From positions 1,863-65,862 of the forward strand of contig JACRKB010000189.1 of the NCBI GenBank assembly GCA_016235545.1: a stretch of 64,000 bases of DNA. The letters are read 5' to 3'. The notes beneath the pieces are model-generated. The model saw only the letters and a list, made by a program, of their open reading frames with translations. It made no database searches and had not been told where the DNA came from. This DNA is from Verrucomicrobiota bacterium. Its GTDB lineage: Bacteria > Verrucomicrobiota > Verrucomicrobiia > Limisphaerales > SXTU01. Each line of letters starts with the position of its first letter. Positions within the stretch are counted from its first letter, which is position 1. A program made the position numbers and the translations under genes. Below, piece after piece: positions 7,883-24,122 of the stretch.

Positions 7883-7903
7883 CTGGTCCCGTAAAGTGAC
7901 CAG
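7883..7903. promoter_or_regulatory. Candidate GntR-type operator CTGGTC-N9-GACCAG
   Basis: Perfect 6-bp inverted repeat with a 9-nt spacer. It abuts the regulator start codon and lies 95 nt upstream of the divergent pilin-like gene. It contains the GT...AC core typical of GntR operators. Confidence 0.45.
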
Positions 7904-7997
7904 AAGCTTAAGGTTGTCCCCGGCAACCGACAAGGCAAAGGTAGCTGCATGGGCAGTAGAATGAATCGCTTCAGCCAGGCAACCAACTGATTCTCGT

Positions 7998-9087: not shown

Positions 9088-9309
9088 TGATGTCATTTCG
9101 GAAAGAGATTCGGCGGAATGGCAAGGAACCGCGACGTGCGCTGGCTCCCTCTCCCTCCCTCGGAGGAGGGGAGAGGGGTTGCGTGGGTAGGCATGGGACG
9201 CCCCACCCCTCATCCGGCCTGCGGCCACCTTCTCCCCTCCTCCGAGGAAGGGAGAAGGTGCGCGTCGTGGCATCCTGTTTGCATTCCACCGACTGGCATT
9301 GAGAATAGG
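9088..9309 (+). repeat. MITE/REP-like structured intergenic repeat, copy B
   Basis: Same orientation and architecture as copy A. It sits between the lipoprotein stop (9073) and the probable GTG start of the SMP-30 gene (9331). Confidence 0.85.
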
Positions 9310-9330
9310 CATGAGTTGTCAGGGAATCTT

Positions 9331-10188
9331 GTGAAGCCAGACCTTGTTGCGGACTGCCAGTGCGTGATTGGCGAGGGGCCGCTGTGGCACCCGACCGAGA
9401 AGCGTGTTTATTGGACCGACATCCCTGCGGGAAAAATGTTCCGCTACGATCCAGCCACTGGCCAGCATGAGCAGTTCTACGAGGGCGAGGTGGTGGGCGG
9501 ATTCACCATTCAGGCTGACGGGGGCCTGCTCTTGTTCATGGCGCGCGGCGCGGTGAAAGTCTGGCGCGATGGCAAACTCACGACGGTAATCGCAGAAATC
9601 CCCGGCGAACTCGGCTCGCGGTTCAATGACGTGATTGCCGACCCGGCAGGCCGGGTGTTCTGCGGCACGATGTCCTGCGAGGAGCACGCCGGCTCGCTCT
9701 ACCGGCTCGACACCGACGGGCGGCTCACCAAGGTGCTAGGCGGCATCGCCTGCTCCAACGGCATGGGCTTCACGCCCGACCGCCGGCACCTTTATTACAC
9801 CGACTCTTTGAAGCGTGAGATCTACCGTTTCGACTACGATGCGGCGACCGGCTCCATCGCCAACCAGCAGTTGTTTGAGCGCACGCCCCAGGGCGAGGGC
9901 TTGCCTGACGGGCTGACCGTGGACGCCGAGGGCTGCGTGTGGTCGGCGCGTTGGGACGGCAGCATGCTCGTGCGGTTCGCGCCCGATGGAAGCGAGGAGC
10001 GGCGCATCACTTTTCCGGCGAGGAAGGTCTCCAGCGCCAGTTTCGGCGGAGACGATCTCTCCGACCTGTATGTGACGACCGCTGGCGGCGACCAGCGGGC
10101 GACGGAAGGCGCGGGCGCGGGCGCGCTGTTTCGAGTGCGGTCCGGCATCCGGGGGCTGCCTGAATTTTGTTCGCGCGTCGGCCTGTGA
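9331..10188 (+). CDS. SMP-30/gluconolactonase/LRE family protein (sugar lactonase)
   Basis: DCQCVIGEGPLWHPTEKRVYWTDIPAGKMFRYDP, NDVIADPAGRVF and SNGMGFTPDRRHLYYTDS are typical SMP-30 propeller motifs. I chose the in-frame GTG at 9331 because the upstream ATG at 9118 lies inside repeat copy B. Confidence 0.8.
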   Translation: MKPDLVADCQCVIGEGPLWHPTEKRVYWTDIPAGKMFRYDPATGQHEQFYEGEVVGGFTIQADGGLLLFMARGAVKVWRDGKLTTVIAEIPGELGSRFNDVIADPAGRVFCGTMSCEEHAGSLYRLDTDGRLTKVLGGIACSNGMGFTPDRRHLYYTDSLKREIYRFDYDAATGSIANQQLFERTPQGEGLPDGLTVDAEGCVWSARWDGSMLVRFAPDGSEERRITFPARKVSSASFGGDDLSDLYVTTAGGDQRATEGAGAGALFRVRSGIRGLPEFCSRVGL

Positions 10189-10308
10189 AATCTTGTCCCT
10201 CACGTGGCCAATCGCCTACGCTGGGCCGTGCGCCCCACTAGCTGAAGGTTTTGCCATGCTCAGCAATGTCGCTCCTGAAGCATCTGCGCGCTTGAACTTG
10301 TTCTCAAA

Positions 10309-11649
10309 ATGACTGACCGCTACGCCAATTCCCGACGCCTCTTCGAGCGCGCTACCCGCAGCATCGCCGCCGGCGTGAACAGCGGCATCCGCAAGATGGA
10401 GCAGCCGGTGCCGCTCTACTTCCAGCGCGGCACCGGCTCCCGTGTGTGGGATGTGGACGGCAACGAATACATTGATTTCCAGATCGGCCAGGGCGCGCTG
10501 CTTTACGGTCATGCTCCCGCCGGCATGGCCGAGGCCATCGCGGCGCAGGCCAGGCTCGGCACGCATTGGGCCGCGCAGTCGGAGCTGGAGATCGAAGTCG
10601 CCGAGCGCTTGCAGGCGATGATTCCCTCCGCGGAACTCGTGCGGTTGAACAATTCCGCCACCGAGGCGGTGCTCTCCGCGTTGCGGCTCGCGCGCGGCCA
10701 CACGGGTCGGCCGCTCATCCTCAAGTTCGAGGGCCACTATCACGGCTGGGCTGACGAGGGCCTGGTAGGTTTCGCGCCGCCCCCGGACAAGTGGGGCACC
10801 GACGAAGCGCCGGCACGCCTGCACCCCAGCCAGGGCGTCATCCCCGAGGTGCTGGAGAAATTTGTCGTCGCGCGCTGGAACGATCCCGACCACCTGCGCC
10901 GCCGCGTCGCGGAGTTCAAGGGCCAGATCGCCGCGATCATTTTCGAGCCGGTGCTCTGCAACACCGGCTGCATGGAGCCGGTGCCCGGCATGATCGAGAC
11001 GATCCGCGAGCTGTGCGACCGCGAGGGGATGCTGATGATCGCGGACGAGACGATTACCGGCTTCCGCTTCGGCCCCGGTGGGGCGCAGAAACATTTTGGC
11101 TTCGTGCCCGACCTGACGGTTCTCGGCAAAGCGGTTGGCGGCGGCGTGCCTTTCGCCGCGTTGGTGGGCAGGCAGGCCGCTATGAGGAAGATCATTGACG
11201 GCTCGGTTGTTCACGCGGGCACGCTCAATGGCAATCCTCTCTGCCTCGCCGCGAGCAAGTGGTGCCTCGACAGCATCGCATCGCTCGGCGAGCGGCATCC
11301 GCGCGAGGTCACCGCGCTCGGCAGCCAGATGATGGCCGGACTGCGCGTGCTAGCGGACCGCCACGGCATCCCGCTGCGCCCGCAAGGGCCGGGCCTTGTC
11401 TTTCACACCGTCATGCTCAAACCCGGTGCGGCTGAAGGCACGGTTCGGGATTACCGCGACTACGTGCGCCGCCATGATGCCACACGCTGGACGCATCTTC
11501 GCCGCTGTCTGCTGGACGACGGTGTGCGGGCCATTGAGCGCGGCCTTTGGTTCATCAGCCTCGCGCACCGGCAGGCCGATGTGGCCGAGGCTTTGCAGAA
11601 GGCGGAACGCAGCTTCGCACGGCACGCGAGCGAGTGGAAACCCGTCTGA
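10309..11649 (+). CDS. Class III PLP-dependent aminotransferase family protein (glutamate-1-semialdehyde aminomutase-like)
   Basis: AAGVNSG, YFQRGTGSRVWDVDGNEYIDF, LNNSATEAV, ADETITGFR and the PLP lysine context DLTVLGKAVGGG. Confidence 0.8.
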   Translation: MTDRYANSRRLFERATRSIAAGVNSGIRKMEQPVPLYFQRGTGSRVWDVDGNEYIDFQIGQGALLYGHAPAGMAEAIAAQARLGTHWAAQSELEIEVAERLQAMIPSAELVRLNNSATEAVLSALRLARGHTGRPLILKFEGHYHGWADEGLVGFAPPPDKWGTDEAPARLHPSQGVIPEVLEKFVVARWNDPDHLRRRVAEFKGQIAAIIFEPVLCNTGCMEPVPGMIETIRELCDREGMLMIADETITGFRFGPGGAQKHFGFVPDLTVLGKAVGGGVPFAALVGRQAAMRKIIDGSVVHAGTLNGNPLCLAASKWCLDSIASLGERHPREVTALGSQMMAGLRVLADRHGIPLRPQGPGLVFHTVMLKPGAAEGTVRDYRDYVRRHDATRWTHLRRCLLDDGVRAIERGLWFISLAHRQADVAEALQKAERSFARHASEWKPV

Positions 11650-11657
11650 CGCCGGCC

Positions 11658-12059
11658 ATGAATCACCCGCTTGTTTCCCATCCTCGCGCCGCCGGGACGC
11701 CGGCTTCCCACCTTCCCTTCAGTCCATCCGTCGTGGTGGGCGACTTGATTTTCGTTTCCGGGCAAGCCTCGGTGGATGCGACGGGAAAGATCGTCAGCGA
11801 CACCTTTGACGGCGAGTTCCGCCGGTCGGTGGAAAATCTGCGTCTGGTGCTCGAAGCCGCCGGCAGCGACCTCGCTCATGTCGTGCAGACTCGCAACTAC
11901 GTCCGCGATGCGGTGGACGTGCCACGCTTCAATGAGCTCTACCGTGAGTATTTCTCCTCTCCGTTCCCCGCGCGCACGACCATCACCAACTGCCTCCCGC
12001 CCACGCTGCGTTATGAAATCGAAGCCGTCGCGGTGAGATGCCACAACCCATCACCATGA
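11658..12059 (+). CDS. ridA: RidA/YjgF/UK114 family enamine-imine deaminase
   Basis: FSPSVVVGDLIFVSGQASVD, the VQTRNYV region and ARTTI...LRYEIEAVAV are typical RidA features. ATG at 11658, 8 nt after the upstream stop. Confidence 0.8.
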   Translation: MNHPLVSHPRAAGTPASHLPFSPSVVVGDLIFVSGQASVDATGKIVSDTFDGEFRRSVENLRLVLEAAGSDLAHVVQTRNYVRDAVDVPRFNELYREYFSSPFPARTTITNCLPPTLRYEIEAVAVRCHNPSP

Positions 12060-13540
12060 CCGCCGAGAACCTTCTCAAATCATCGCTGTCGCTTGCCGCC
12101 AGCCTTCTGGTGATTGGCACCAGCCACGGTCGCGCCGCTGCCGCACCGCTGGACATCGGCTCGCGGCGCGAGCTCTTTGTGGACCGGCATCTCACCGAGC
12201 GCCTCGACCGCGTGAGCCTTCACCTGCACGAGCCGCGCGACGAAGGAGCTGTGCTGAAGTTCGATGAGCCGTGGGAGGGCCTTCACTCCGGCTATTGCAC
12301 TGTGATCCGCGACGGGGCGCAGTTTCGCGTTTATTATCGCGGGCTGCCGGTGACGGGGCGCGATGGCACTCCCAACGAAGTCACCTGCGTCGCTGAGTCC
12401 TCCGACGGCATCCGCTGGAAGAAGCCGAAGCTCGGCCAGTTCGAAGTGCGCGGCACAAAGGAGAACAACGTCGTGCTGGCCGACGCCACTCCCTTCTCGC
12501 ACAACTTCAGCCCGTTCCTCGACCCACGACCGGGCTGCCCGCCGGAGCAGCGCTACAAGGCAATCGCCGGACTCGACGGCAGCGGGCTGGCCGCATTCGT
12601 GTCCGCCGACGGGCTGCGCTGGACGAAGCTTCGCAGCGAGGCCGTCATCCCGCGCAAGGCCCCGTTCAAATTCACCCATCTGTTCGACTCTCAAAACCTC
12701 GCGTTCTGGTCCGAGTCCGAGAGGAAATACGTCTGCTACTTCCGCGTCTGGGACGGCGTCCGCCGCATCGCACGCTGCGAGAGCGCTGACTTCCTCCAGT
12801 GGAGCGACCCCGTCCTGATGGGCTACGTGACCGACGGCCAGCCATCGCCGGTCGAGGAGCTTTACACGAACCAGACCCATCCATACTTCCGCGCGCCTCA
12901 AATCTACGTCGCGGTAGCCGCGCGCTTCGTCCCCGGACGACAGGCCATCAGCGACGAGGAGGCCGCCGCGCTCCGCGTCGCCAAGGGCTACCACAAGGAC
13001 GTGTCCGATGCCGTGCTCATGACCACGCGGGGCGGCAGCGCCTACGACCGCACGTTCCTGAGCTCCTTCATCCGGCCTGGCATCGGCGCGCGGAACTGGG
13101 TCTCTCGCTCGAACTATCCCGCTTGGGGAATCGTCCAGACCGGACCGGACGAGATGTCCCTCTACACGAACCAGGACTACGCGCAGCCGACCGCCCACTT
13201 GCATCGCTACTCGCTGCGGCTCGACGGCTTCGCCTCGGTCCGCGCTGACTATGGCGGCGGCGAACTGCTCACCAAGCCGCTGCGGTTCACCGGTGCTTCG
13301 CTCCGGCTCAACTTCTCCACGTCCGCAGCCGGCTCGATTCGTGTCGAGGTTCAGGACGGGGCCGGCAAGCCGATTTCCGGTTTCGCGGCAGCCGACTGTG
13401 TTGCCGTGATTGGCAACGACACAGACCGCCCGGTGCGGTGGAAGCCCGGCGGCGACCTCGCCAAGCTCGCCGGCCAGCCGGTCCGGCTGCGTTTCGTGAT
13501 GAAGGACGCGGATGTCTTCGCGCTACGTTTCGCTCCCTAG
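12056..13540 (+). CDS. Secreted Asp-box beta-propeller glycosidase-like protein (paralog group with 19393 and 32414)
   Basis: Signal peptide, then LFVDRHL...LHEP...PWEG...FRVYYRG. Asp-box-like ESSDGIRWKKPKLG and SADGLRWTK. An ATGA start/stop overlap with ridA supports the ATG at 12056. Confidence 0.55.
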   Translation: MTAENLLKSSLSLAASLLVIGTSHGRAAAAPLDIGSRRELFVDRHLTERLDRVSLHLHEPRDEGAVLKFDEPWEGLHSGYCTVIRDGAQFRVYYRGLPVTGRDGTPNEVTCVAESSDGIRWKKPKLGQFEVRGTKENNVVLADATPFSHNFSPFLDPRPGCPPEQRYKAIAGLDGSGLAAFVSADGLRWTKLRSEAVIPRKAPFKFTHLFDSQNLAFWSESERKYVCYFRVWDGVRRIARCESADFLQWSDPVLMGYVTDGQPSPVEELYTNQTHPYFRAPQIYVAVAARFVPGRQAISDEEAAALRVAKGYHKDVSDAVLMTTRGGSAYDRTFLSSFIRPGIGARNWVSRSNYPAWGIVQTGPDEMSLYTNQDYAQPTAHLHRYSLRLDGFASVRADYGGGELLTKPLRFTGASLRLNFSTSAAGSIRVEVQDGAGKPISGFAAADCVAVIGNDTDRPVRWKPGGDLAKLAGQPVRLRFVMKDADVFALRFAP

Positions 13541-13605: not shown

Positions 13606-15093
13606 ATGAGATTTTTGGACTGGCTGGTGATCGCCGGCTACGCCGCCGGCATGCTCGCGATCGGGCGCTACTACGCATCGCAGAACAAGACCACCGAAGA
13701 CTACCTCCTCGGGGGACGGCGCATGAGTCCTTTTGCCATCGGGCTTTCGCTGTTCGCCACGCTGACCAGCTCGCTCTCCTACCTCGCGGTGCCGGGCGAG
13801 ACGATCAAGCACGGCCCCATGCTGATGTCGCAGTTCGCGTCGTTCCCGTTCATCGCGCTCGTGGTGGGCTGGGGTTTGATCCCGTTCATCATGCGGCAGA
13901 ACGTGACCAGCGCATATGCGATGCTCGAAGAACGTTTCGGCGTCAGCGTGCGGCTCGTGGGCGCGACGATGTTCCTGACCATGCGCCTGGCCTGGATGGC
14001 GACGATCCTGTATGCGACGTCCGACAAGGTTCTCGCGCCGATGCTGGGCCTGGGGCCGCAGGCAACGATCTTTGCCGCCGTGATCATGTGCGTCATCACG
14101 CTCATCTACACGGCGGAGGGCGGCTTGCGCGCCGTGGTCGTCACCGATGTCGTCCAGTCCCTGATCATGATCGGCGGCGCGTTGGCGGTGGTCCTCGTCG
14201 TCACGGTGGACTTGGGCGGCGTCTCCGCCTGGTGGCCGCATCAATGGGCCGCGCACTGGGACGCGCCGCAGTTCGGCTTCGACTCCTCCACCCGCATCAC
14301 TTTCCTCGGCATCGCCACCTCGGCCTTCGCCTGGTATGTGTGCACCTGCGGCTCGGACCAGATGGCGATTCAGCGCTGGCTCTCCACGCGCGACGCGCCC
14401 GCAGCCCGCAGGTCCCTGTTCACCACGCTCGTTGCGGAAGCCATCATCGGCCTCCTGCTGGGACTGGTCGGCCTCGCGGTGGTGGGCTACTTCACCGCGC
14501 ATCCAGAACACTTCACAAGCTCCGCCAACCTCGTCACCTCTGCGGACCGGCTTTTCCCGCGCTTCGTCATGGTCGGCCTGCCAGCGGGAATGACCGGGCT
14601 GATCATTGCGGCGGTGCTGGCCGCCGCGATGTCCAGCCTGTCGGCGGGGATGAACTCCTCGTCCTCGGTGATCACGGAGGATTTCATCGCGCGTTTCCGA
14701 TCCGCGCCGATGACCGACACCGCCCGCATGAAGCTGGCGCGGCTCCTCTCCGTGGGCATCGGCGTCACCGTGATACTGCTCAGCCTGCTGGTGAGCCAGA
14801 TTGAGGGCAACCTCGTGGATGTTTGCTACCGCGCCATCAACCTGCTGACCGCGCCGCTCTTCGTGCTCTTCTTCATGGCCATCTTCGTGCGCTGGGCCAC
14901 GACGTTCGGCGCGCTGATGGCGGGGCTGGCAAGCGTGGTCACGGCGGTGTGCATCGCCTTCTCAGGGCCGCTGGGTCTTCCTCCCGTCAGCATCATGTGG
15001 ATCATGCCGGGGTCTTTCGCCACCGGCGTCATCTGTGGAAGCATCGCCAGCCTGCTGCCCATCGGCTCCCGGTCCAAGGCTGGACAGTCGTAA
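13606..15093 (+). CDS. Sodium:solute symporter (SSS/SSF) family transporter
   Basis: Polytopic hydrophobic protein. The N-terminal YLLGGRRMSPFAIGLSLFATLTSSLSYLAVPGE is characteristic of the SSF family. Confidence 0.85.
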   Translation: MRFLDWLVIAGYAAGMLAIGRYYASQNKTTEDYLLGGRRMSPFAIGLSLFATLTSSLSYLAVPGETIKHGPMLMSQFASFPFIALVVGWGLIPFIMRQNVTSAYAMLEERFGVSVRLVGATMFLTMRLAWMATILYATSDKVLAPMLGLGPQATIFAAVIMCVITLIYTAEGGLRAVVVTDVVQSLIMIGGALAVVLVVTVDLGGVSAWWPHQWAAHWDAPQFGFDSSTRITFLGIATSAFAWYVCTCGSDQMAIQRWLSTRDAPAARRSLFTTLVAEAIIGLLLGLVGLAVVGYFTAHPEHFTSSANLVTSADRLFPRFVMVGLPAGMTGLIIAAVLAAAMSSLSAGMNSSSSVITEDFIARFRSAPMTDTARMKLARLLSVGIGVTVILLSLLVSQIEGNLVDVCYRAINLLTAPLFVLFFMAIFVRWATTFGALMAGLASVVTAVCIAFSGPLGLPPVSIMWIMPGSFATGVICGSIASLLPIGSRSKAGQS

Positions 15094-15115: not shown

Positions 15116-17461
15116 ATGCCGCTCCAGCTCGTCACGCAACTCACCGACACTGACCGCCGCCTGCTCGTCCGTGCGTCGGATGGATTCGTGCCGGAGCAAG
15201 TGTTCGACATCCACGCGCATCTGTTTCACTCGCGCCATTTCGCCGCCGGCAATCGCCCGGCTTTTTTGGATGAGAATCGCGGCTATGGCGTGCGTGACTT
15301 CGACGAAGCGATGGCCCGCTGGATGCCGGGCCGCACGGTGGAAGGCTTGTTCTTCGGCTATCCAAGTCCGGGCAACAATCGCGCCGGCGAGAACGCCTGG
15401 CTGAACGAGCAAGTCAGCCCGCTCGCCGGCAACACGAACTCCCGCGCGCTCGTGCTCGCCGCGCCCACGGATGACCCGGCGGAGGTTCGCCGGCTGTTGG
15501 CGACCGGCGTCTTTGTCGGCATCAAGCCGTATCGTCTCTACGCTGACGTGTCGGACACGCGCGAGGCGGCGATTGAATCCTTCGCGCGCGAATGGATGTG
15601 GGAGGCCTGCCATGACCACGATGGCGTGATGGTCCTGCACATCATGCTCGCCGATGGCATCACCGACCCGCGTAACGTCGAGGCAATCCGCCGCCTCTGC
15701 CGCCGCTACCCGCGCTGCCGGCTCGTGCTCGCGCATATCGCGCGCTCGTTCAACTACCGCCACGCACGCGATGGACTTCATGCCGTCGCGGACCTCGACA
15801 ACGTGGTCGTGGACACCTCCGCGGTGACACAGGCCGGTGCTTTTCGCGCCGCCTTGGAAATCCTCGGCCCGCGCCGCGTGCTGTGGGGCAGCGACTACAT
15901 GGTGAGCGAGCTGCGCGGCTCGTGCATTTCGCAGGGCGATGGCTTCACCTGGATTTACTCGGAAGACGAATCCGCGCAGAAGCTCACCATCTTCGGCAGC
16001 TACACGCTCGTCGGCATCGAGTCGCTGCTGTGCCTGCGCGAAGCCTGCGACGACACGGGCATGACGACCGCCGATGCGCGGGACATTTTTCACGACAACG
16101 CGCTGCGCCTCCTCGCACCTCATCTGCGCGCCGAAATCCGTCCCGTCGCCGCCAGCGGTCCCGAGCTGTGGTCGCAGGCGAAGACGAAAATCTCCTGCGG
16201 CACCGGACTGCTCTCCAAGCGCGCGCACCTGTTCGACCCGGTTGAATGGCCGTCCTATTTCTCGCGCTGCAAAGGCGCGGACATCTGGGACACGCAGGGG
16301 CGGCGCCTGACGGACTTCACCGGCGGAGTCGGAGCCATCCTACTCGGCCACGCGGATGAGGATGTGAACCGCGCGGTCGTCCGGCGCGTGTCGCACGGCA
16401 CCTACTGCACGCTCGTCTCGCCCGATGAGCCTGTGCTCGCGGAGCAACTCCTCGCCCTGCATCCGTGGGCCGCGCGTGTGCGCTACGCGCGCGGCGGCGG
16501 CGAGGCGCTCTCGCTCGCCGTTCGCATTGCCCGCGCGGCCACGGGCAAGAGCGGCATCGCCTTCTGCGGTTACCACGGCTGGAGCGATTGGTATCTCGCG
16601 GCCAATCTCGCCGATGACAAATCGCTCGATGGCCACCTGCTGCCCGGCCTCACGCCGCTCGGTGTGCCGCGCGAACTCGCCGGCACGGCGGTGCCGTTTC
16701 GCTACAACGACCCCGCGTCGTTCCGCGAGGCCATCACAAAGCTGGGCGGCAACTTCGCCGCCGTCGTGATGGAACCAATGCGCTCCGAGTCGCCGCGCGA
16801 CGGCTTTCTGCAAAACATCATCGCTGAGTGCCAGCAGCGCGGCGCGGTCTTTGTTCTGGATGAAGTCACCAGCGGCTGGCGCTACGGCTTTCCGGGCGCG
16901 TCACCGGGACTCGGCATCGAGCCGGACATCGCCGTCTATGCGAAGGCGATGAGCAACGGCATCCCCTGCGCCGCCATCGTCGGTCGCGCGAGCGTGATGG
17001 ATGCCGCGAACGAGAGCTTCATCTCCAGCAGCTACTGGACGGACGGCATCGGCCCCGCCGCCGCGCTGGCGTGCATCGGCAAGATGCAGCGGCTCGGTGT
17101 GCAGGCGCGTGTGTGGGCGCTCGGCGAACGGATGCAGCAAGGCTTGCGCGACATTGCGGCCCGTCATCCCGCACTGAACATCAAGGTCGGCGGCCAGCCC
17201 TGCGCGCCGTCGTTCGCCTTCGGTCTCGGTGACGACAGCGCGGCGGCAAAGGCGCTGATGATTCGGGGGATGCTGCACCGGCAATTCCTTTTCAGCAGCC
17301 AGCTCTACGCCATGTGGCCGCACAGCGAGGCGATGATTGCCGACATGCTTTCCGCGTTGGACGAGGTGCTCGTCGGCCTCGATGAGTTGCACGAGCGCGG
17401 CACCTTGCGCGCGGTGGCGGGGCCAGCCGTCGTCCCCGCAGGCTTTGCCCGGCTCGCTTGA
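15116..17461 (+). CDS. Fusion protein: amidohydrolase_2 (metal-dependent hydrolase/lactonase-like) domain plus class III PLP aminotransferase domain
   Basis: The N-terminal half has VFDIHAHLF (HxH), VLAHIARS and WGSDY, typical of the amidohydrolase TIM barrel. The C-terminal half has GAILLGHAD, the GYHGWSDWYL region, LDEVTSGWR and the PLP lysine context DIAVYAKAMSNG. Confidence 0.75.
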   Translation: MPLQLVTQLTDTDRRLLVRASDGFVPEQVFDIHAHLFHSRHFAAGNRPAFLDENRGYGVRDFDEAMARWMPGRTVEGLFFGYPSPGNNRAGENAWLNEQVSPLAGNTNSRALVLAAPTDDPAEVRRLLATGVFVGIKPYRLYADVSDTREAAIESFAREWMWEACHDHDGVMVLHIMLADGITDPRNVEAIRRLCRRYPRCRLVLAHIARSFNYRHARDGLHAVADLDNVVVDTSAVTQAGAFRAALEILGPRRVLWGSDYMVSELRGSCISQGDGFTWIYSEDESAQKLTIFGSYTLVGIESLLCLREACDDTGMTTADARDIFHDNALRLLAPHLRAEIRPVAASGPELWSQAKTKISCGTGLLSKRAHLFDPVEWPSYFSRCKGADIWDTQGRRLTDFTGGVGAILLGHADEDVNRAVVRRVSHGTYCTLVSPDEPVLAEQLLALHPWAARVRYARGGGEALSLAVRIARAATGKSGIAFCGYHGWSDWYLAANLADDKSLDGHLLPGLTPLGVPRELAGTAVPFRYNDPASFREAITKLGGNFAAVVMEPMRSESPRDGFLQNIIAECQQRGAVFVLDEVTSGWRYGFPGASPGLGIEPDIAVYAKAMSNGIPCAAIVGRASVMDAANESFISSSYWTDGIGPAAALACIGKMQRLGVQARVWALGERMQQGLRDIAARHPALNIKVGGQPCAPSFAFGLGDDSAAAKALMIRGMLHRQFLFSSQLYAMWPHSEAMIADMLSALDEVLVGLDELHERGTLRAVAGPAVVPAGFARLA

Positions 17462-17480: not shown

Positions 17481-18230
17481 ATGACCAGTCCATCAGAACA
17501 GGATTTGAACCGCATCGTCGCTGACTACCAACGCGACGGCGTTGTTGTGCTCCGGCATTTTTTCAGCGCAGAGGAAGTCGCCGAGGTGCGCGCCGAGGTC
17601 GAGCGCTACATCCGCGATGACCTTGCCACCAAGCCGGCCGACGCCGCCACGCGCGAGGCCGATGGCGTCACCGTCCGCAACCTCTGGCGGCTCGAACAGC
17701 ACAATGAAAAGCTGCGCGCCCTCGCCGCGTCGCCGGCTATCCGCGACCTCGTTGCTCCACTGGTGCACGGCGAACCGGTGCTCGCGGGCATCGAGACGTT
17801 CAACAAGCCGGCGCGCATCGGCTCCGGCGTGCCGTATCATCAGGACAACGCCTACTTCTGCCAGACGCCACCCGACATGCTGACAGTCTGGATCGCGCTC
17901 GACGCCGTGACGGCGGCGAACGGCCCCGTGTTCTTCGTGAAAGGCTCGCACAAGCTCGGGGCGCTACCCACCAAGCCCTCTGGGGTGCGCGGGAATTCCA
18001 TCGGCATGGCTGAGCCGTCCGCAGTGCCGCTGGCGGAACAGTTCTGCGGTCTGCTCGCGCCGGGTGATGCGACGATTCATCACTGCAACACGATCCACCA
18101 CTCCGCGCCGAACACGACGGATTTCCCGCGGCTCGGATTTCTGCTGGTCTTCCGTGGCCGGCACACGCAGACGGATCCCACCTTGAAAGCCACTTACACA
18201 ATCGCCGCCACCGCGACGCCGCCCGCATGA
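17481..18230 (+). CDS. Phytanoyl-CoA dioxygenase (PhyH) family Fe(II)/2-oxoglutarate oxygenase
   Basis: Y.RDGVVVLRHFFS at the N-terminus, an HxD triad element (VPYHQDNAYF) and a distal His (TIHHSAPN). Confidence 0.75.
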   Translation: MTSPSEQDLNRIVADYQRDGVVVLRHFFSAEEVAEVRAEVERYIRDDLATKPADAATREADGVTVRNLWRLEQHNEKLRALAASPAIRDLVAPLVHGEPVLAGIETFNKPARIGSGVPYHQDNAYFCQTPPDMLTVWIALDAVTAANGPVFFVKGSHKLGALPTKPSGVRGNSIGMAEPSAVPLAEQFCGLLAPGDATIHHCNTIHHSAPNTTDFPRLGFLLVFRGRHTQTDPTLKATYTIAATATPPA

Positions 18231-19393
18231 GGACCGTCCTCGCCACCGTCTTGCTTGCATCCGTCTGCGCTCACGCGCGTGACATCCACGTTGGCAAAGA
18301 CGCTCCCACCATCCACGCCGCGATCAAGATCGCGCAGCCTGGTGACACCATTCACCTCGAACCCAAGGTCTATCGCGAGTATGCCGGCTTCTACGGCAAA
18401 CGAGGCGCGCCGGGCCGCCCCATTACTCTCGACGGTCACGGCGCCACGCTCGAAGGGTCCGATCCGATTGATCCATCGAAGTGGAGCGAGGTCTCGCCCG
18501 GCTTGTTCAAGAACGACAACCTGCTGCCACGACTCGACGACGCCATCACTGCGCGATGGTTCTTCATCATCAATGGCAAGATGAACCTCATGGGCCGCAC
18601 CTCGAAAGGCAGGAGCGCGCCCTACAAAACCCCCGAGGCCCTGCAAGCCAACGAATGGACCTTCATCAAAGGCCCGCCGCGTGCCGATGCGAAGCCGCAG
18701 CAATCTTTCGGGACATTTTTTCTCAAGCTCCCGGCGGGGCAGAAGCTCGCGGAGGCCGGCATCGCCATGCCCGTGCGCAGTGCCGGTGTGCAGCTCAGCG
18801 GCGACAACGCGCATCTGGTCATCAAGAACCTCACCGCCACGCATCCTTACAACGATGGCTTCAACATCCACGGCGACTGTCGCGATGTTGTTTTTGAAAA
18901 CATCCGCGCCATCGAATGTGGCGACGACGGCATCAGCGCGCACGAGTCCGCACAGTATCGGGTCGATGGCTTCGTGAGCATCGGCAACAGCACCGGCATC
19001 TGCGACACCGGCACCGCACAGACGAGTTACACTCGCGTCTTCATCGCCGACTGCGCTGGCGTGGACCTCTATTTCCTCGACCACGGTCGCTACGGCGTGA
19101 CGAACGCTGTGGTGTTCTCTTCCTCTCAACATGCGCTTGTCGTGACGGGTGACTGCCGCCTCACGCTGGACAATGTTCTCATCCGCCGCTCACGCCCGCT
19201 GCACGAAGGCAACGTAACCACCCGAGCCACGCTTGCCGCGAGGCGCTGCACTTTTGAAAACATGGAGGTCAAGGTGACGGGTGTGGCGACATGGGACGAT
19301 TGCCTCATCAACGGCAAACCAGCGCCGGATGCCCAAGCGAAGGGCGCAATCCTGCCCGAACTCAACAAACTCATCCCAAAGAATTACCAGTGA
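18227..19393 (+). CDS. Secreted right-handed parallel beta-helix repeat protein (pectate-lyase fold)
   Basis: Signal peptide. I.AAIKIAQPGDTIHL, then repeated turns: NDGFNIHGDCRDVVFENIRAIECGDDGISAHES. ATGA overlap with the upstream gene. Confidence 0.7.
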   Translation: MRTVLATVLLASVCAHARDIHVGKDAPTIHAAIKIAQPGDTIHLEPKVYREYAGFYGKRGAPGRPITLDGHGATLEGSDPIDPSKWSEVSPGLFKNDNLLPRLDDAITARWFFIINGKMNLMGRTSKGRSAPYKTPEALQANEWTFIKGPPRADAKPQQSFGTFFLKLPAGQKLAEAGIAMPVRSAGVQLSGDNAHLVIKNLTATHPYNDGFNIHGDCRDVVFENIRAIECGDDGISAHESAQYRVDGFVSIGNSTGICDTGTAQTSYTRVFIADCAGVDLYFLDHGRYGVTNAVVFSSSQHALVVTGDCRLTLDNVLIRRSRPLHEGNVTTRATLAARRCTFENMEVKVTGVATWDDCLINGKPAPDAQAKGAILPELNKLIPKNYQ

Positions 19394-20916
19394 TGAAATC
19401 GCTCATCCTCCTCGCCACCCTCGCCACATTGCCACTGCACGCCGAGGAGCGCGTGCTCTTTGCCTTTGATGAGCACAACATCGCTTGGCAGCACAACCTG
19501 AAGTTGACGCTCGTCGCGCCCGACAAGCATTCCGCGAATCCTGTCGTGCGCTGCGGGCCGAAGGGTTCGCCGGATTATGGCCACGCGATTCTCTACGGCA
19601 CCGTCCTCCATGACGGCCGCAAGTTCCGCATGTGGTATCTGGGGATGATCCAGCGGGAACTGGAGCGCGGCCAGGCTCCCGGCTGGTGGCGGCCGATGTG
19701 CTACGCCGAGAGCACCGACGGCATCGTGTGGACCAAGCCGGAGCTTGGGCTCGTGGACCTCGGCGGCAACAAGCAGAACAATATCTGCCTGCTCGAAGGC
19801 GAAGTTCACTCCATGACTCGGGTCAACGACTTCCTCTCCGTCATGCACGACCCGGAGGAGCGCGACCCCGCGCGGCGGTTCAAGGTGGCCTACATCGCAC
19901 ACATGCCCTACGACGACATTCGCGGCGGGATGAGCCGCGTTGGCGTGAAGGAATCGCGCGTCGGGGCCATGATCACGGCCACGAGCGCGGACGGCTTGCG
20001 CTGGAAGATCGTCGGGGATCGCCCGGCCAACGCGGGGGGCGAACGCTTTGAGGTCAGCAGCCTGTATCGCTTCGGCAAGTTCTACCACGCCTCCGGTCAG
20101 CTCGCCTCGCCATGGTGCTGGCTCAACGACGGGCGGCCGGCGGGTCGCGTGATGATGACGTATCGTTCGCCCGACTTCCGCTCGTGGTCGCAGGCGAAGG
20201 CGCTCTCGATGGTCCTGCCGCAACAGCAGACCGACCCGCAGCCGACCGTCAACGAGATGCTGCAAGGCTTCAGCAAACAGATGCACATGGGCGTCGGCGT
20301 GTGGAATCGCGGCAACGTTTTGGTGGGCTTGCAAGGCATCTGGCAGGCGCAGCCGGCCGGCACCAAAGGTCACGACGGCCTGAAGATTGACCTCGGTCTG
20401 GCCATCAGCAACGACGGTGTCCACTTCCGAGAGCCGGTTCCCAACTTCAAGTTCCTCGAACATGGCCGCGACGGCGAGTGGGACTCGATCGCGCTGCTGC
20501 AAGGCCACGCGTTCGTCAACGTCGGCGAGAAAACTTACATCTGGTATTCGCACTGGGACTGCGAGGGGAAATTCCGTTCGCAGGAGATCGGCCTGGCCAC
20601 GCTGAGGCGCGACGGCTTCGGTCATCTCTCGCGGAAGCAGGACGACAACGACGCGCACTTCATCACCAGCACGTTCACCGCGGGCAAGGCGAGCATCAAC
20701 GTGGACGGCATCACGCCGGAAGCGCCGTTGACCGTGCAACTGCTCGATCCTCTCGACCAGCCCATCGCCGGCTGCACCGCCACCATCACGCAGAACGGCA
20801 CGCGGCTGCCGATCCAGTGGAGCAAGAAAGTGCCCTCGGGCCGCAGCGTGGCCTTGCGGTTGAACTTCCCCGCCAACAGCCGCGCGAAGGTGTATGCGGT
20901 CTATCTCAACAATTGA
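19393..20916 (+). CDS. Secreted Asp-box beta-propeller glycosidase-like protein (paralog of 12056 and 32414)
   Basis: Signal peptide MKSLILLATLATLPLHA. FRMWYLG, ESTDGIVWTKPELG, SADGLRWKI and ISNDGVHFRE. TGATG stop/start overlap with the upstream gene. Confidence 0.55.
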   Translation: MKSLILLATLATLPLHAEERVLFAFDEHNIAWQHNLKLTLVAPDKHSANPVVRCGPKGSPDYGHAILYGTVLHDGRKFRMWYLGMIQRELERGQAPGWWRPMCYAESTDGIVWTKPELGLVDLGGNKQNNICLLEGEVHSMTRVNDFLSVMHDPEERDPARRFKVAYIAHMPYDDIRGGMSRVGVKESRVGAMITATSADGLRWKIVGDRPANAGGERFEVSSLYRFGKFYHASGQLASPWCWLNDGRPAGRVMMTYRSPDFRSWSQAKALSMVLPQQQTDPQPTVNEMLQGFSKQMHMGVGVWNRGNVLVGLQGIWQAQPAGTKGHDGLKIDLGLAISNDGVHFREPVPNFKFLEHGRDGEWDSIALLQGHAFVNVGEKTYIWYSHWDCEGKFRSQEIGLATLRRDGFGHLSRKQDDNDAHFITSTFTAGKASINVDGITPEAPLTVQLLDPLDQPIAGCTATITQNGTRLPIQWSKKVPSGRSVALRLNFPANSRAKVYAVYLNN

Positions 20917-20965
20917 ACCAACTCGCCATTCATTTTGTCAGAGTGAGGCACCAATAATCACCAAC

Positions 20966-22567
20966 ATGAATCGCGCCAAGCCGACATCCGAACCGCCACA
21001 GTCAACTCATCTGCCGCAAACAGGCCCCGGAGCCTCCCTTGTTCCTGATCACTCACGCCGCCGTTTCCTCAAGTCCACGGTGTTGGCTGGCGCCACAGTG
21101 ACAGTCGGCGGGTTTGCCCACGCAGCGGCAGCGGACGGCAAGGCTCCGGGGGAACCCGATGTGGAACTTGAACTCACGGCTGCGCCCGGCGAACTCCCGC
21201 TGTTCAAAGGCAAGGCGACCCCTGTCTGGCGTTACGAGGGAAATGTTCTCAAAGGCCGCAAGGACTCCCTCCGGCTTGGCGAGGGTTATCTCGGCCCAAC
21301 TCTTCACCTCCTCCGTGGCGAGCGCGTTCGCATCCACTTCGCGAATAATCTCCCCGAGGCTTCGATAATTCACTGGCACGGATTGATCGTCCCTCATGCG
21401 GCAGATGGGCTTCCCAGCCACGCGGTCTTGCCCAAGGGACGCTACACCTACGACTTCACGGTCACGAATCCGGCGGGGACTTACCCGTATCACCCGCATC
21501 CTCATATGCGCACGGGGCCGCAGGTGTATCGCGGGCTGGCAGGCATCATCATCGTCCGTGATCCCGCGCACGACAGCATCGGGCTGCCAGGCGGAAAGCA
21601 GGACCTCAGCCTGGTGATTCAGGACCGGCGCGTGGACGCCGACAATCGCTTTGTCTATTCCGAGGCCATGATGGACATGATGGGCGGAATGCTCGGCCCC
21701 ACCGTGATGGTCAATGGCCGTCCCGACGCCGCCTTTCGCATCGAGCGGCGGCCCCATCGCCTGCGTCTGCTCAACGCCTCCAACGCACGCATCTACAAAC
21801 TCGCGTGGTCGGACGGCTCGCCCATGCACGTCATCGGCACCGATGGCGGCCTGCTCTCCGGCGACGAGGGGCCGCAGCAGCGCCCGTTCGTCGTCCTCGC
21901 GCCCTTTGAGCGCGTCGAGCTGTGGGAGGATTTCTCGACCCGGAAACCCGGCGCCCAGCTCACGCTCGTCAGCGAGCAGTTCACCATCAACATGGGCATG
22001 GTCGGCATGGGACCGGGCCGGGGCGGCGGGCCCGGCATGATGATGAACATGAACATGGGCGGGGGTGAGAAGCTGCAAATCGCCCGGTTCGAGATTCAGC
22101 CAGGCGATGCGCGCCCCGGTGCGCTGCCCAAGTTGCCGGGCCAGAAACCCAGGCTGGCGGAGGCGAAGCGCGAAGTCCGCACCACGCTGGGCTTCCGGAT
22201 GATGCGCGGTTTCCTCAATGGGCGGAACTTCAAGGAGGACGACCTGCTCGACCAGGAGAAGTTGAAACTCAACGAGCCGGTCATCTGGACTTTCGACAAC
22301 GCGAGCGAAATGGGGATGCAGATGCCGCATCCCATGCACATCCACGCCGTCCAGTTCCGCGTGGTCGAACGCAAGGGCGGAAGCATGGGCGAGCTGGCCA
22401 AGGGCGTCATGGACGACGGCTGGAAAGACACGGTGCTGGTCTTCCCCGGAGAAACCGTGAAGCTGCACGTGCAGCCGACCGAGCGCGGCACCTTTGTCTA
22501 TCATTGCCACAACCTGGAGCACGAGGACATGGGCATGATGCGCCACTTTGAGGTGGCTGGCGGATAG
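20966..22567 (+). CDS. TAT-exported multicopper oxidase with methionine-rich insert
   Basis: Twin-arginine leader SRRRFLKSTVLAGA. Copper ligand motifs HWHGL, HPHPH, HPMHIHAVQF and YHCHNLEHEDMGMM. Met-rich loop GMVGMGPGRGGGPGMMMNMNMGGG. Confidence 0.9.
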   Translation: MNRAKPTSEPPQSTHLPQTGPGASLVPDHSRRRFLKSTVLAGATVTVGGFAHAAAADGKAPGEPDVELELTAAPGELPLFKGKATPVWRYEGNVLKGRKDSLRLGEGYLGPTLHLLRGERVRIHFANNLPEASIIHWHGLIVPHAADGLPSHAVLPKGRYTYDFTVTNPAGTYPYHPHPHMRTGPQVYRGLAGIIIVRDPAHDSIGLPGGKQDLSLVIQDRRVDADNRFVYSEAMMDMMGGMLGPTVMVNGRPDAAFRIERRPHRLRLLNASNARIYKLAWSDGSPMHVIGTDGGLLSGDEGPQQRPFVVLAPFERVELWEDFSTRKPGAQLTLVSEQFTINMGMVGMGPGRGGGPGMMMNMNMGGGEKLQIARFEIQPGDARPGALPKLPGQKPRLAEAKREVRTTLGFRMMRGFLNGRNFKEDDLLDQEKLKLNEPVIWTFDNASEMGMQMPHPMHIHAVQFRVVERKGGSMGELAKGVMDDGWKDTVLVFPGETVKLHVQPTERGTFVYHCHNLEHEDMGMMRHFEVAGG

Positions 22568-22622: not shown

Positions 22623-24122
22623 ATGAATCCCCCCAACGAGAACGACGAGCTGGCACTCTCCAGCCGGTTTCGGAAGACAGCAGGCGCAAGTTTCCTTCAC
22701 GCGCTCCTCGCCGCGATTCTGTTCCTGCCTGCGCTCGCACTTCACGCCGAAGACTGGCCGCAGTTTCGCGGAGGCAATGCCAGCGGTGTCTCGTCGAGCA
22801 CGGGGCTGCCCGCAGAGTTCTCCTCGCAGAAAAACGTCGCGTGGCGGGTGAAGCTCGGTGATGGCATCGGCTCGCCGGCGGTGATGAGGGGCCGCGTCTT
22901 CAGCACGGCGATGGTGGGTGAACGTGCGGTCGCAGTGTTCGCTCTGGATGCCGCGAGCGGACAGCAGCTCTGGCGCACGGAGTTCGCGACGGGCGTCTTG
23001 CCGCGCATCACGCCGCCGAACAGCCACGCTTCATCCACGCCCGCTGCCGATGGCGACCGGGTCTATGTCCACTTCAGCACCATCGGCCTGCTCGCCTTCG
23101 ATGCGGCCACCGGTGCCGAGGTTTGGCGCTACGCGATGACGAAGCCCGCGTATCTCATGGACTGGGGCGCGGCTTCGTCGCCAATCGTCCACGGGGGCAT
23201 GGTCATCTTTTGTCAGGACGATGACCTCGCGCCGTTCCTCGTCGCGGTGGATGCGAAGACGGGGAAGGAGAAATGGAAGACGCTGCGCAAGGACATGCTC
23301 GCGGGCTATGCGTTGCCCGTGATGTGCAAGGCCAATGGCCGCACAGACCTCGTCATCGCCGGCAGCGGCAAGCTGAAGGGCTACGACCCCGGGACGGGCC
23401 GCGAGCTGTGGACGTGCAACACGCTGCTGCGGACCATCATGACTTCGCCCGTGGTCAATGACGGCGTCATTTACATCGCCGTGCAGAGCTACGGTGACTC
23501 CACGCGCACGCTCAAGCACGCGCTGCTGGAGTGGCTCGACACGAATCAGGACGGCATCCTCTCGCGCGACGAGGTGCCGAAGGAATTCCACGAGCGCTTC
23601 GATGCCTCCGACAAAAACAAGGACGGCAAGATTGGTCCCGAGGAAATCGACACTGCCTTCCAAAGCTCTGAGAACATGGCCGCCGGCGGCAACATCATCC
23701 AGGCAGTCAAGGGCGGCGGCACGGGCGATGTGACGAAGACCCATGTGCTCTGGAACTTCGATCACAAGACGCCCTCGAACCTCTCCTCGCCACTCTTCTA
23801 CAACCACCGGCTCTACCTCGTGAAGAGCGGCGGCATGTCGAGCTGCTACGATGCGCGCGATGGCAAGGTGCTCTGGGAGCGCACGCGGCTGGGCAATTTT
23901 GGCGACTACTTCGCCTCGCCCATCGCCGCCGATGGCAAGGTCTTCATCACAGGCAAGAACGGGTTCGTCATGGTGCTCAAGGACGGCCCAGAGATGAGGG
24001 TCCTCGCCAAGAATGACATTGGAGAGGAGATCATCGCCACGCCTGCGATTGCCGACGGGCGCATCTTCATTCGCACCCGCGAGAACCTGATCTGCGTGGC
24101 CAGCAAGCCAGCCAAACCCTGA
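22623..24122 (+). CDS. PQQ-like (BamB-type) beta-propeller repeat protein with embedded EF-hand pair
   Basis: DWPQFRGGNASGV, repeated W-containing blades, and two EF-hand loops (DTNQDGILSRDE and DKNKDGKIGPEE). Confidence 0.75.
   Translation: MNPPNENDELALSSRFRKTAGASFLHALLAAILFLPALALHAEDWPQFRGGNASGVSSSTGLPAEFSSQKNVAWRVKLGDGIGSPAVMRGRVFSTAMVGERAVAVFALDAASGQQLWRTEFATGVLPRITPPNSHASSTPAADGDRVYVHFSTIGLLAFDAATGAEVWRYAMTKPAYLMDWGAASSPIVHGGMVIFCQDDDLAPFLVAVDAKTGKEKWKTLRKDMLAGYALPVMCKANGRTDLVIAGSGKLKGYDPGTGRELWTCNTLLRTIMTSPVVNDGVIYIAVQSYGDSTRTLKHALLEWLDTNQDGILSRDEVPKEFHERFDASDKNKDGKIGPEEIDTAFQSSENMAAGGNIIQAVKGGGTGDVTKTHVLWNFDHKTPSNLSSPLFYNHRLYLVKSGGMSSCYDARDGKVLWERTRLGNFGDYFASPIAADGKVFITGKNGFVMVLKDGPEMRVLAKNDIGEEIIATPAIADGRIFIRTRENLICVASKPAKP

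Follow-up and report, generated by a model that had tools for sequence, protein, structure and literature searches.

The subject of this study is a gene on the forward strand of contig JACRKB010000189.1 of a Verrucomicrobiota bacterium (assembly GCA_016235545.1), within a stretch of 64,000 nt (contig positions 1,863 to 65,862) that is called the window below. Its product joins two domains in one polypeptide, an N-terminal Amidohydro_2 domain (PF04909; N-domain) and a C-terminal class III aminotransferase domain that depends on pyridoxal 5'-phosphate (PLP; PF00202; C-domain). The two superfamilies are known; their conserved fusion is uncharacterised, and so is the glycan locus of the Planctomycetes-Verrucomicrobia-Chlamydiae (PVC) superphylum in which it lies. 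With a probability of about 0.4, we favour for it a bifunctional cytoplasmic enzyme of a glycan-utilisation locus, which would carry out two consecutive steps, N-deacylation and then amine removal, on an amino sugar, or an aldonic or ulosonic amino-sugar acid, that bears an N-acyl group. What we infer is the class of substrate, which reaction belongs to which domain and in what order the reactions run; the fusion, its conservation, the intact catalytic residues of both halves and the neighbour counts are observed.

The gene translates as a single open frame of 781 amino acids and a stop codon (coordinates in Table 1), and the uninterrupted two-domain frame that the initial annotation of this DNA had reported from its letters is borne out by Pfam, in which both domains score above their cut-offs. 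The Amidohydro_2 match spans residues 31-333 (74.4 bits, gathering cut-off 26.4; E 1.7e-20; profile positions 2-287 of 289), and the Aminotran_3 match spans residues 382-688 (126.9 bits, cut-off 30.5; E 1e-36). The ATG at 15,116 is taken as the start, because an alternative in-frame GTG at 15,035 would run into the sodium:solute symporter (SSF) gene, whose stop codon is at 15,091-15,093, and because homologues begin at the equivalent of this ATG. The LLSKR/WPxYF segment that follows the linker is common to stand-alone and otherwise-fused relatives of the C-domain, and alignments show the catalytic residues of both halves to be intact in the window protein. A merger of two neighbouring genes by sequencing or assembly error has a negligible probability. 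One metagenome contig (L158) does carry the halves as overlapping open reading frames (ORFs) in different frames, but single-frame, full-length copies are present in 74 loci from separate assemblies, including complete isolate genomes, and the junction of the window gene has an even GC content and no homopolymer run able to mask a frameshift. The fusion is thus a genuine conserved architecture and not an assembly artefact.

For the survey of related loci, 84 were fetched and examined together with the window, and neighbour counts refer to these 85. The halves form one ORF in 74 of them, which disposes of the missed stop or frameshift that had been named as a possible flaw; ten others are truncated at a contig end, and one (L078) holds a genuine stand-alone N-domain. 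One database entry matches the window protein at 100% identity and over 100 homologues match it at 70-82%, each with both domains, and the 120 best homologues (70-100% identical; 736-803 amino acids) all combine PF04909 with PF00202. Best homologues that carry a source name all come from Verrucomicrobiota (Prosthecobacter, Roseimicrobium, Brevifollis and Chthoniobacter). A scan of GTDB with one genome per species, seeded with N-domain motifs from five sequences, matched 207 species-level genomes, and the 80 loci retained from it are all from Verrucomicrobiota. A Planctomycetota clade, 39% identical to the window protein, always has both domains (Schlesneria sp. T3-172 and metagenome-assembled genomes of Pirellulales and Planctomycetaceae). 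The architecture therefore spans the PVC superphylum, and it is ancient. A metagenome scan seeded with stand-alone sequences gave 48 fusion loci, 12 loci with an internal stand-alone N-domain and five with a stand-alone N-domain at a contig end, and an exhaustive search of cluster representatives showed that stand-alone forms of both halves exist. Databases call the fusion simply a "class III-fold PLP-dependent enzyme" or a "GSA aminomutase". Literature searches on amidohydrolase-aminotransferase fusions in Verrucomicrobia, on glucosaminate and galactosaminate catabolism and on oxidative HexNAc pathways returned no paper on the architecture, and the ong pathway, discussed below, was the only relevant result. 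We found no characterised member for the architecture or for either sub-clade, in agreement with the remark of the initial annotation that no characterised enzyme of this kind was known to it.

Fourteen relatives, at 27-49% identity, were aligned with the N-domain. D31, H33, H35, K137, Y139, H175, H207, R210, D233 and D260 are invariant among them, the first three within the motif VFDIHAHLF that had been picked out from the letters. An AlphaFold model built on this alignment (predicted local distance difference test score, pLDDT, 90.9) is a (beta/alpha)8 barrel with the invariant residues at the C-terminal ends of strands 1, 4, 5, 6, 7 and 8, and a beta-hairpin insert at residues 267-281 is conserved. 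Metal-dependent amidohydrolases have a ligand pattern that consists of the HxH motif, a Lys on strand 4, one His each on strands 5 and 6 and a strand-8 Asp. All five binuclear subtype I positions are occupied in the alignment and the model, by H33/H35, K137, H175, H207 and D260, respectively, so that the suspicion of a half lacking metal ligands is not borne out, and by this ligand pattern the N-domain is probably a metal-type hydrolase.

The N-domain is a divergent member of PF04909 outside every characterised sub-family. Searches of the PDB with its sequence and with the 14-sequence profile gave marginal matches only (LigW, E 0.014; 3cjp, E 4e-6 over one third of the domain). Its sole NCBIfam match is the fuconolactonase model NF052480, at 19.4 bits against a cut-off of 400 and over residues 227-269 only. 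The top Foldseek match is the L-fucono-1,5-lactonase 4do7/4dlf of the cog3618 group (E 5e-11), with 15-17% identity, a template modelling (TM) score of 0.56 normalised to the query and 0.67 normalised to the target, and a root-mean-square deviation of 6.3. It is followed by an uncharacterised Bifidobacterium Amidohydrolase 2 and then by decarboxylases, LigY and LigJ (E about 1e-8); the significant matches listed are all Amidohydro_2 barrels, and all are distant. D-aminoacylase and OngB chains are absent from the phmmer, profile and top-50 Foldseek matches.

A paralogue of the fused N-domain, a stand-alone Amidohydro_2 gene here called AH2, is placed directly after the fusion at 12,297-13,271 in L003 and in about 30 other loci. 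It keeps the DxHxH, GIK, H, AHxxR, D and GSD residues of the N-domain (hhalign probability 96%) and is always followed by a glucose-1-dehydrogenase-like short-chain dehydrogenase/reductase (SDR). An argument that a separate lactonase AH2 speaks against lactonase activity of the N-domain was dropped, since AH2 is a paralogue with the same catalytic residues.

The C-domain retains the residues on which PLP chemistry depends in its fold. In alignment with the solved glutamate-1-semialdehyde aminomutase (GSAM), the lysine of YAKAMSNG, which had also been pointed out before, coincides with the one that binds PLP, and a C-terminal GFARL(A/V/T) is conserved. Best among the solved relatives are the GenB-type C-6' aminotransferase 7lm0, GSAM and D-phenylglycine aminotransferase (E about 1e-37); other PDB matches include ACL racemase and a 6'-epimerase, and the NCBIfam list includes PbfA and GSAM. 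Throughout Pfam, NCBIfam and the PDB, the matches were class III aminotransferase-fold proteins only, and D-amino-acid deaminase was absent. With HemL and other class III enzymes (7lm0, D-phenylglycine aminotransferase) the C-domain has in common the lysine of the Schiff base, the aspartate of DEV and the stacking motif GYHG, but it scores under every HemL/GSAM cut-off (TIGR00713, 165.6 against 527.3; NF000818, 170.1 against 398; NF004856, 198.9 against 486), and the "GSA aminomutase" names in the databases are therefore over-annotation. It belongs instead to a separate clade that is marked by GYHGWxDWYLAANL...LDGHLLPG and a C-terminal GFxRL and is often fused to sugar-modifying domains. Among cluster representatives, its nearest relatives (40-46% identical) are fused to CTP_transf_3, to GFO_IDH_MocA (GFO), to an aldo/keto reductase (AKR), or to GFO and CTP_transf_3 together. 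As in the window protein, the partner enzyme is N-terminal on the same polypeptide (P0129, P0140, P0135 and P0266), but it is a nucleotidyltransferase or an oxidoreductase and not a hydrolase. Judged from these sequences, the clade looks like a group of aminotransferases that convert keto groups of sugars into amino groups and back. We found no characterised member in it. Literature searches on GSA-like aminotransferases with a cytidylyltransferase returned only the gene list of a Legionella O-antigen cluster, in which an unfused GSA-like class III aminotransferase, which may or may not belong to the clade, adjoins, in this biosynthetic setting, an acylneuraminate cytidylyltransferase and PseG (PMC3694923).

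Two side observations concern this clade. The otherwise-fused relatives P0129, P0135, P0140, P0142, P0147, P0262 and P0266 represent a modular, uncharacterised class III clade to which databases give the label "GSA aminomutase". P0124 and P0137, two distant and deep-branching fusions (33-37% identical), have Asn in place of the PLP lysine and lack the GYHGW...LDGHLL segment, with the hydrolase residues intact, and P0137 additionally lacks the DEV aspartate; by these changes, their PLP domain looks like a degenerate pseudo-enzyme kept beside an active hydrolase.

Stand-alone relatives of the N-domain show with which activities this hydrolase is combined, although the contigs of several are too short to show neighbours. 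The family is repeatedly coupled to an amine-removing enzyme, and this enzyme comes from four unrelated families (class III, class IV, DAO and DegT). In L096 and L097, a split class III aminotransferase of the same type as the C-domain (47% identical) forms an operon with a 118-codon ORF and the N-domain gene, with overlaps of 4 nt. A class IV aminotransferase gene overlaps the start of the N-domain gene in L086; a DAO flavoenzyme gene overlaps it in L089 and is directly upstream in L094 and L109; and a DegT/DnrJ/EryC1 sugar aminotransferase gene is just downstream in L090 and L091. Other companions recur as well: GFO directly upstream of the N-domain gene (L095, L098, L099 and L155) and in the operon TonB-MFS-Ldh_2-GFO-DAO-Ndom at 2,594-5,966 of L094, an HpcH or RraA-like aldolase beside it (L098, L099, L105 and L121), GH123-like and BNR_2 genes (L078 and L088) and an adjoining SSF gene (L078). 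A recurrent module thus consists of the hydrolase, an amine remover, a sugar oxidoreductase, a class II pyruvate aldolase and an importer, and the fusion would therefore catalyse two adjacent steps by which a sugar or sugar acid with an amine group is broken down. That the amine-removing partner is swapped while the hydrolase is kept is expected if the hydrolase delivers a free amine.

Two details of these operons may be added. The operon type of L094 and L109, with its DAO, GFO and Ldh_2 genes (the last of the keto-acid/imine reductase type), TonB receptor and MFS transporter, is a flavin-dependent alternative of the module. The 118-codon ORF of L096 (5,648-6,004) and L097 has no family match and is translationally coupled on both sides; it may be a small partner protein or a spurious ORF of high-GC DNA.

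In the favoured reading, the N-domain would first strip the N-acyl (acetyl) group and expose a primary amine, with H33, H35, H175 and D260 as metal ligands, H207 as the base, and K137, Y139 and R210 as bridging ligand or carboxylate binders. The C-domain, by its fold and its intact PLP residues, would then transaminate the amine to a carbonyl. From the neighbouring genes, the keto product would be reduced by GFO, SDR or AKR enzymes; alternatively, an HpcH/RraA-like class II aldolase would cleave a 4-hydroxy-2-keto acid to pyruvate and an aldehyde. This reading is favoured because it explains both the swappable deaminating partner and the fusions of the C-domain clade to GFO and AKR, because the ligand pattern of the N-domain is that of metal-dependent amide/ester hydrolases, and because it supplies the deacetylase that N-acetylated substrates need and for which there is otherwise no candidate among the annotated recurrent neighbours.

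The gene order of the operons also bears on a reversed sequence of steps, in which the PLP domain would first turn the amine into a ketone and the N-domain would then act as a hydratase, a C-C (beta-diketone) hydrolase or a decarboxylase, comparable with LigJ, LigY and ACMSD. The aminotransferase gene does come first in the split operon of L096 and L097, LigY, LigJ and non-oxidative decarboxylases are among the Foldseek matches, and the combination of a His on each of strands 5 and 6 with the strand-8 Asp resembles metal-dependent sites of the ACMSD type. However, the hydrolase is first in the fusion and in L158, the enzymes named use aromatic or dienoate substrates and nothing aromatic-catabolic was seen in the loci, and C-C cleavage is already provided by the class II aldolases. 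We regard this order as quite improbable.

Somewhat less improbable, though still unlikely, is that the pathway is the same and that the PLP domain is an eliminating ammonia-lyase/dehydratase (like PbfA, or OngC-like in function), a racemase/epimerase or an aminomutase. The class III fold hosts all three activities, and the matches of the C-domain include PbfA, GSAM, ACL racemase and the 6'-epimerase. A lyase would make the 2-keto-3-deoxy acid directly, with the enamine quenched by RidA, which is encoded in the window, and it would fill the dehydratase gap before HpcH, no sugar-acid dehydratase having been seen in the loci. Yet RidA is not a conserved neighbour of the fusion (it occurs in the window and in at least one other locus), the alternative partners of the class IV, DegT and DAO families are oxidative or transaminating and not eliminating, and fusion to oxidoreductases, as in the C-domain's closest relatives, is typical of keto/amine interconversion.

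The wider neighbourhood was compared by calling ORFs in the 85 loci, clustering them and annotating cluster representatives (counts in Table 1). The canonical order in Prosthecobacter is AKR-PhyH-betaHelix-esterase-u500-u557-u541-FUSION-(betaHelix-LamG)-AH2-SDR-SSF-...-NanM-SDR-HpcH-GFO-GFO, and the window has a shorter version of it (regulator ... SMP30-AT3-RidA-u500-SSF-FUSION-PhyH-betaHelix-u541). In the Planctomycetota locus L085, HpcH is directly upstream of the fusion, a GntR-FCD regulator follows it and PhyH genes lie opposite; an RraA-like aldolase gene is directly upstream of the fusion in L004, L014, L019 and L063. Among the SDR, GFO, HpcH, SSF and AH2 neighbours, no NCBIfam assignment at the equivalog level names the sugar.

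Importers, glycosidase-like and beta-helix proteins, an esterase, BNR_2, a NanM-like mutarotase, aldolases and sugar regulators mark the locus as catabolic and not biosynthetic. A role in the modification of a nonulosonic-acid-type or other surface sugar, as suspected for the relatives fused to CTP_transf_3, GFO or AKR, is accordingly very improbable. Such a role could draw on the fusions of C-domain relatives to cytidylyltransferase or oxidoreductase domains and on the Legionella O-antigen cluster (PMC3694923), but the genes around the fusion encode importers, aldolases, an esterase, repressor-type regulators responsive to sugars and glycosidase-like proteins whose N-termini resemble signals, and no glycosyltransferase, flippase or nucleotidyltransferase is among the annotated recurrent neighbour families. 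A sialic-acid locus was considered in view of the NanM-like, BNR_2 and SSF genes; NanA, NanK and NanE were not seen, and the loci neither confirm nor exclude it.

The alternative that the initial annotation had put forward is a lactonase. A sugar 1-dehydrogenase (SDR, GFO or AKR) would form an amino-aldonolactone by oxidising a free amino sugar, ring opening would fall to the N-domain, and the PLP domain would transaminate or deaminate the 2-amino-2-deoxy-aldonate to a 2-keto(-3-deoxy) acid for the class II aldolase. We consider it a serious alternative, somewhat less probable than N-deacylation. The top Foldseek match and the only NCBIfam match of the N-domain are both lactonases, GFO or SDR dehydrogenase genes are directly beside the N-domain or AH2, HpcH/RraA aldolase genes are adjacent, and the RidA of the window fits an imine or enamine product. 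PF04909 enzymes known from sugar contexts are lactonases (LigI, BmulJ_04915 and LRA2). The similarity is marginal, however (query-normalised TM score, identity and NCBIfam bit score as given above), and the Lys on strand 4 and the His on strand 5, invariant in the N-domain, are reportedly absent from the metal-independent cog3618 lactonases. Further candidates for a lactonase are already encoded in the loci (by the SMP-30 gene of the window and by AH2 in others), amino sugars seldom serve as substrates in the free, non-acetylated form, and a DegT-type partner normally acts on ring-bound sugar amines and not on open-chain amino-aldonates. Of the earlier proposal, the hand-over of an amino (sugar) acid from the hydrolase to the PLP enzyme fits the genomic context, whereas the identity as a lactonase is not established by a TM score of 0.56 and 19 bits against 400. 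N-deacylation accounts for the genomic context no less well.

Several points weigh against N-deacylation. We know of no PF04909 enzyme that hydrolyses amides; the activities described for the family are those of lactonases, decarboxylases, hydratases and C-C hydrolases. In structure and sequence, a sugar lactonase is the nearest relative, though a weak one. Moreover, AH2, with the same catalytic residues, adjoins its glucose-1-dehydrogenase-like SDR after the fusion in about 30 loci, and this looks like a classic dehydrogenase/lactonase pair, which suggests lactonase chemistry in the sub-family. The GFO neighbours could be lactone-making sugar 1-dehydrogenases instead of ketoreductases, the PLP domain could be an eliminating deaminase instead of a transaminase, and K137 may be a carbamylated metal bridge or equally a substrate binder.

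Known systems share parts of this logic. The cog3618 lactonases (BmulJ_04915, 4dlf/4do7; LigI) belong to the same Pfam family as the N-domain and have the same (beta/alpha)8 fold, including the strand-1 DxHxH, the strand-6 His and the strand-8 Asp, and they likewise occur in sugar-acid catabolic contexts beside dehydrogenases. The N-domain differs from them in the additional invariant K137, Y139, H175 and R210, in the hairpin insert and in the fusion to a PLP enzyme; the metal-free lactonases LigI and BmulJ_04915 reportedly use only the HxH, one further His and the Asp. In the biosynthesis of acetamido sugars, triads of dehydrogenase, aminotransferase and N-acetyltransferase are known (WbpB-WbpE-WbpD, GnnA-GnnB and NtdC-NtdA), in which a GFO-family oxidoreductase and an aminotransferase act on the same sugar carbon, and the pathway proposed for the fusion would be their reverse (deacetylation, transamination and reduction). 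Unlike the C-domain, the aminotransferases of the triads are DegT-family enzymes that act on nucleotide sugars in the opposite direction, and the triads contain no hydrolase. NagA and NagB resemble the proposed fusion activities in that an amidohydrolase-superfamily deacetylase precedes amine removal in amino-sugar catabolism. In contrast to the fusion, they are separate proteins that act on phosphorylated substrates, NagA belongs to Amidohydro_1 and NagB is not a PLP enzyme; Pfam, sequence and profile searches detected no similarity of the fusion to either.

The closest functional parallel may be the Ong pathway for oxidised chitin in Pseudoalteromonas prydzensis, which is experimentally established and acts on an N-acetyl-amino-aldonate with the GlcNAc1A deacetylase OngB, the PLP-dependent deaminase OngC, the RidA protein OngD and the SSS transporter OngIT (PMC9537276, PMC12017989). 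Its logic, an amidohydrolase-superfamily hydrolase followed by PLP-dependent amine removal to a 2-keto(-3-deoxy) acid, would by analogy be that of the fusion, and both the Ong system and the window contain a RidA and a sodium:solute symporter. OngB has a D-aminoacylase-like fold and OngC is annotated as a D-amino-acid deaminase, however, and neither is among the sequence or fold matches of the window protein. In the fusion both activities are on one polypeptide with a PLP half of class III fold, and the proposed downstream step is a non-phosphorylative class II aldolase, compared with KdgK in the Ong pathway. By sequence the fusion is outside the HemL, fuconolactonase, OngB and OngC families and is a member of PF04909 and PF00202; functionally, by analogy, it would most resemble the ong deacetylase/deaminase pair or else a dehydrogenase-lactonase-deaminase route.

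The fusion is abundant in freshwater and soil Verrucomicrobiota and in Planctomycetota, and yet it is labelled a generic aminotransferase or, wrongly, HemL. N-deacylation, if true, would add a missing deacetylation/deamination step to the mineralisation of amino-sugar carbon and nitrogen by PVC bacteria, widen the reaction range of the Amidohydro_2 family and give a functional handle on a class III aminotransferase clade fused to sugar-modifying domains. If the lactonase alternative were true, no fusion of a lactonase with an aminotransferase would have been known before this protein, and it would point to an oxidative pathway for amino sugars. Through the conserved locus, three unassigned families of probable secreted glycosidases and a PhyH dioxygenase also become candidates for a new system of glycan degradation. 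A further, speculative view, which we consider rather unlikely as a whole, is that PVC bacteria degrade N-acetylated amino sugars or amino-sugar acids (nonulosonic acids being one possibility) by a non-phosphorylative pathway not described before, in which the PF04909 barrel would be the first amide hydrolase of its family, fused to a sugar-amine transaminase of an uncharacterised class III clade and feeding class II aldolases, with u500, u541 and u557 as new glycoside-hydrolase families that define the glycan. The main value of the fusion lies in a well-defined experimental target and in the correction of the HemL annotation.

Table 1. Features of the window (positions counted from its first letter; all parts of the fusion are on its strand) and occurrence of neighbour families in the 85 loci.
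Feature	Position	Strand	Basis	Loci (of 85)
Fusion gene (Amidohydro_2 and class III aminotransferase)	15116-17461	+	Open frame, both Pfam domains above cut-offs, homologues with both	
N-terminal Amidohydro_2 (beta/alpha)8 domain, residues 31-333	15206-16114	+	Pfam, 14-sequence alignment, AlphaFold, Foldseek	
D31, H33, H35	15206-15220	+	Invariant	
K137, Y139	15524-15532	+	Invariant	
H175	15638-15640	+	Invariant	
H207, R210	15734-15745	+	Invariant	
D233	15812-15814	+	Invariant	
D260	15893-15895	+	Invariant	
Inter-domain linker and N-terminal GTGLLSKR...WPSYF segment of PLP domain, residues 334-381	16115-16258	+	Alignment	
C-terminal class III (fold-type I) PLP domain, residues 382-781	16259-17458	+	Pfam, PDB matches, alignment	
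GYHGW motif	residues 485-489	+	Conserved	
D582 (pyridine-N aspartate)	16859-16861	+	Conserved, aligns with solved GSAM	
K610 (Schiff-base PLP lysine, in YAKAMSNG)	16943-16945	+	Aligns with solved GSAM	
GntR-HTH and Peripla_BP_3 sugar-type regulator (start uncertain)	6794-8152	-	Pfam	10
SMP-30/gluconolactonase-family gene (start uncertain)	9118-10188	+	Pfam SGL, E 2e-74	
Stand-alone class III aminotransferase-fold gene, GSAM/GntE-like	10309-11649	+	Pfam, E 6.7e-53	
RidA-family (YjgF/L-PSP) gene	11658-12059	+	Pfam Ribonuc_L-PSP, E 9.8e-24	
u500, about 500 aa, hydrophobic signal-like N-terminus, distant u541 paralogue	12038-13540	+	No Pfam/NCBIfam match	26
Sodium:solute symporter (SSF), directly upstream of fusion	13606-15093	+	Pfam, E 3.7e-43	30
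PhyH-family Fe(II)/2-oxoglutarate dioxygenase, directly downstream of fusion	17481-18230	+	Pfam, E 1e-34	
Right-handed beta-helix protein (window type), hydrophobic signal-like N-terminus	18227-19393	+	Beta_helix, E 9e-6, just under gathering score	18
u541, 507 aa, hydrophobic signal-like N-terminus; predicted beta-propeller and beta-sandwich	19393-20916	+	Homologues, low-confidence model	39 (commonest neighbour)
SDR				31
u557				23
NanM-like Kelch mutarotase				20
822-aa esterase				19
Stand-alone Amidohydro_2 (AH2)				16, plus 15 where the ORF caller chose an antisense ORF
HpcH aldolase				14
Beta-helix protein, 464-aa type				13
AKR				9
BNR_2				9
GFO				8

The SSF gene directly upstream likely encodes the importer of the fusion's substrate. 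The stand-alone class III gene next to RidA, to which attention had been drawn as a paralogue of the PLP domain, is confirmed by Pfam. It is also under the HemL cut-offs (TIGR00713, 324.9 against 527) and has far better GSAM/GntE-type NCBIfam scores than the C-domain, to which it is about 31-33% identical. Owing to this low identity and to its rarity as a neighbour, it says little about the fusion. A GSAM/GntE-like gene occurs near the fusion in few loci (the window, 9,118-12,059; L047, 894-3,713; L061); in L047 and L061 it is accompanied by an M81/MlrC-type metallopeptidase gene, with RidA in L061 or an Amidohydro_2 gene in L047. This gene and its companions may be a second, separate amine-processing module.

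The nearest solved relatives of the PhyH protein are the uncharacterised monooxygenase 6zyk, the sugar-modifying SnoN/SnoK, EvdO2 and EctD. PhyH is linked to the fusion in both Verrucomicrobiota (the window) and Planctomycetota (L085, 5,806-8,251), and oxidative deamination, hydroxylation and demethylation are candidate roles.

The commonest neighbours of the fusion are u500, u541 and u557, three mutually distant paralogous families of about 500 amino acids (in the window, and at 5,186-9,995 in L003) with no Pfam, NCBIfam or PDB sequence match. SxDGxxW motifs are repeated in u500 and u541, and the homologues of u541 are all annotated as hypothetical, none with a Pfam domain. The u541 model is of low confidence (pLDDT 59.5), and its Foldseek matches, propellers of the GH32/43/130/117 type with a C-terminal sandwich, are a hint at the fold class only; on this modelling the three are candidate new glycosidase families. 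The ORF of u541 as mechanically called begins at 19,291, and the homologues and the signal-like N-terminus point to the ATG at 19,393, which overlaps the last base of the beta-helix stop codon and suggests translational coupling. Further downstream on the same strand are a multicopper oxidase gene (20,894-22,567), CueO-like under the cut-off and with a weak, sub-threshold Tat-signal match, and a gene for a PQQ/BamB-like beta-propeller protein with an EF-hand (22,623-24,122).

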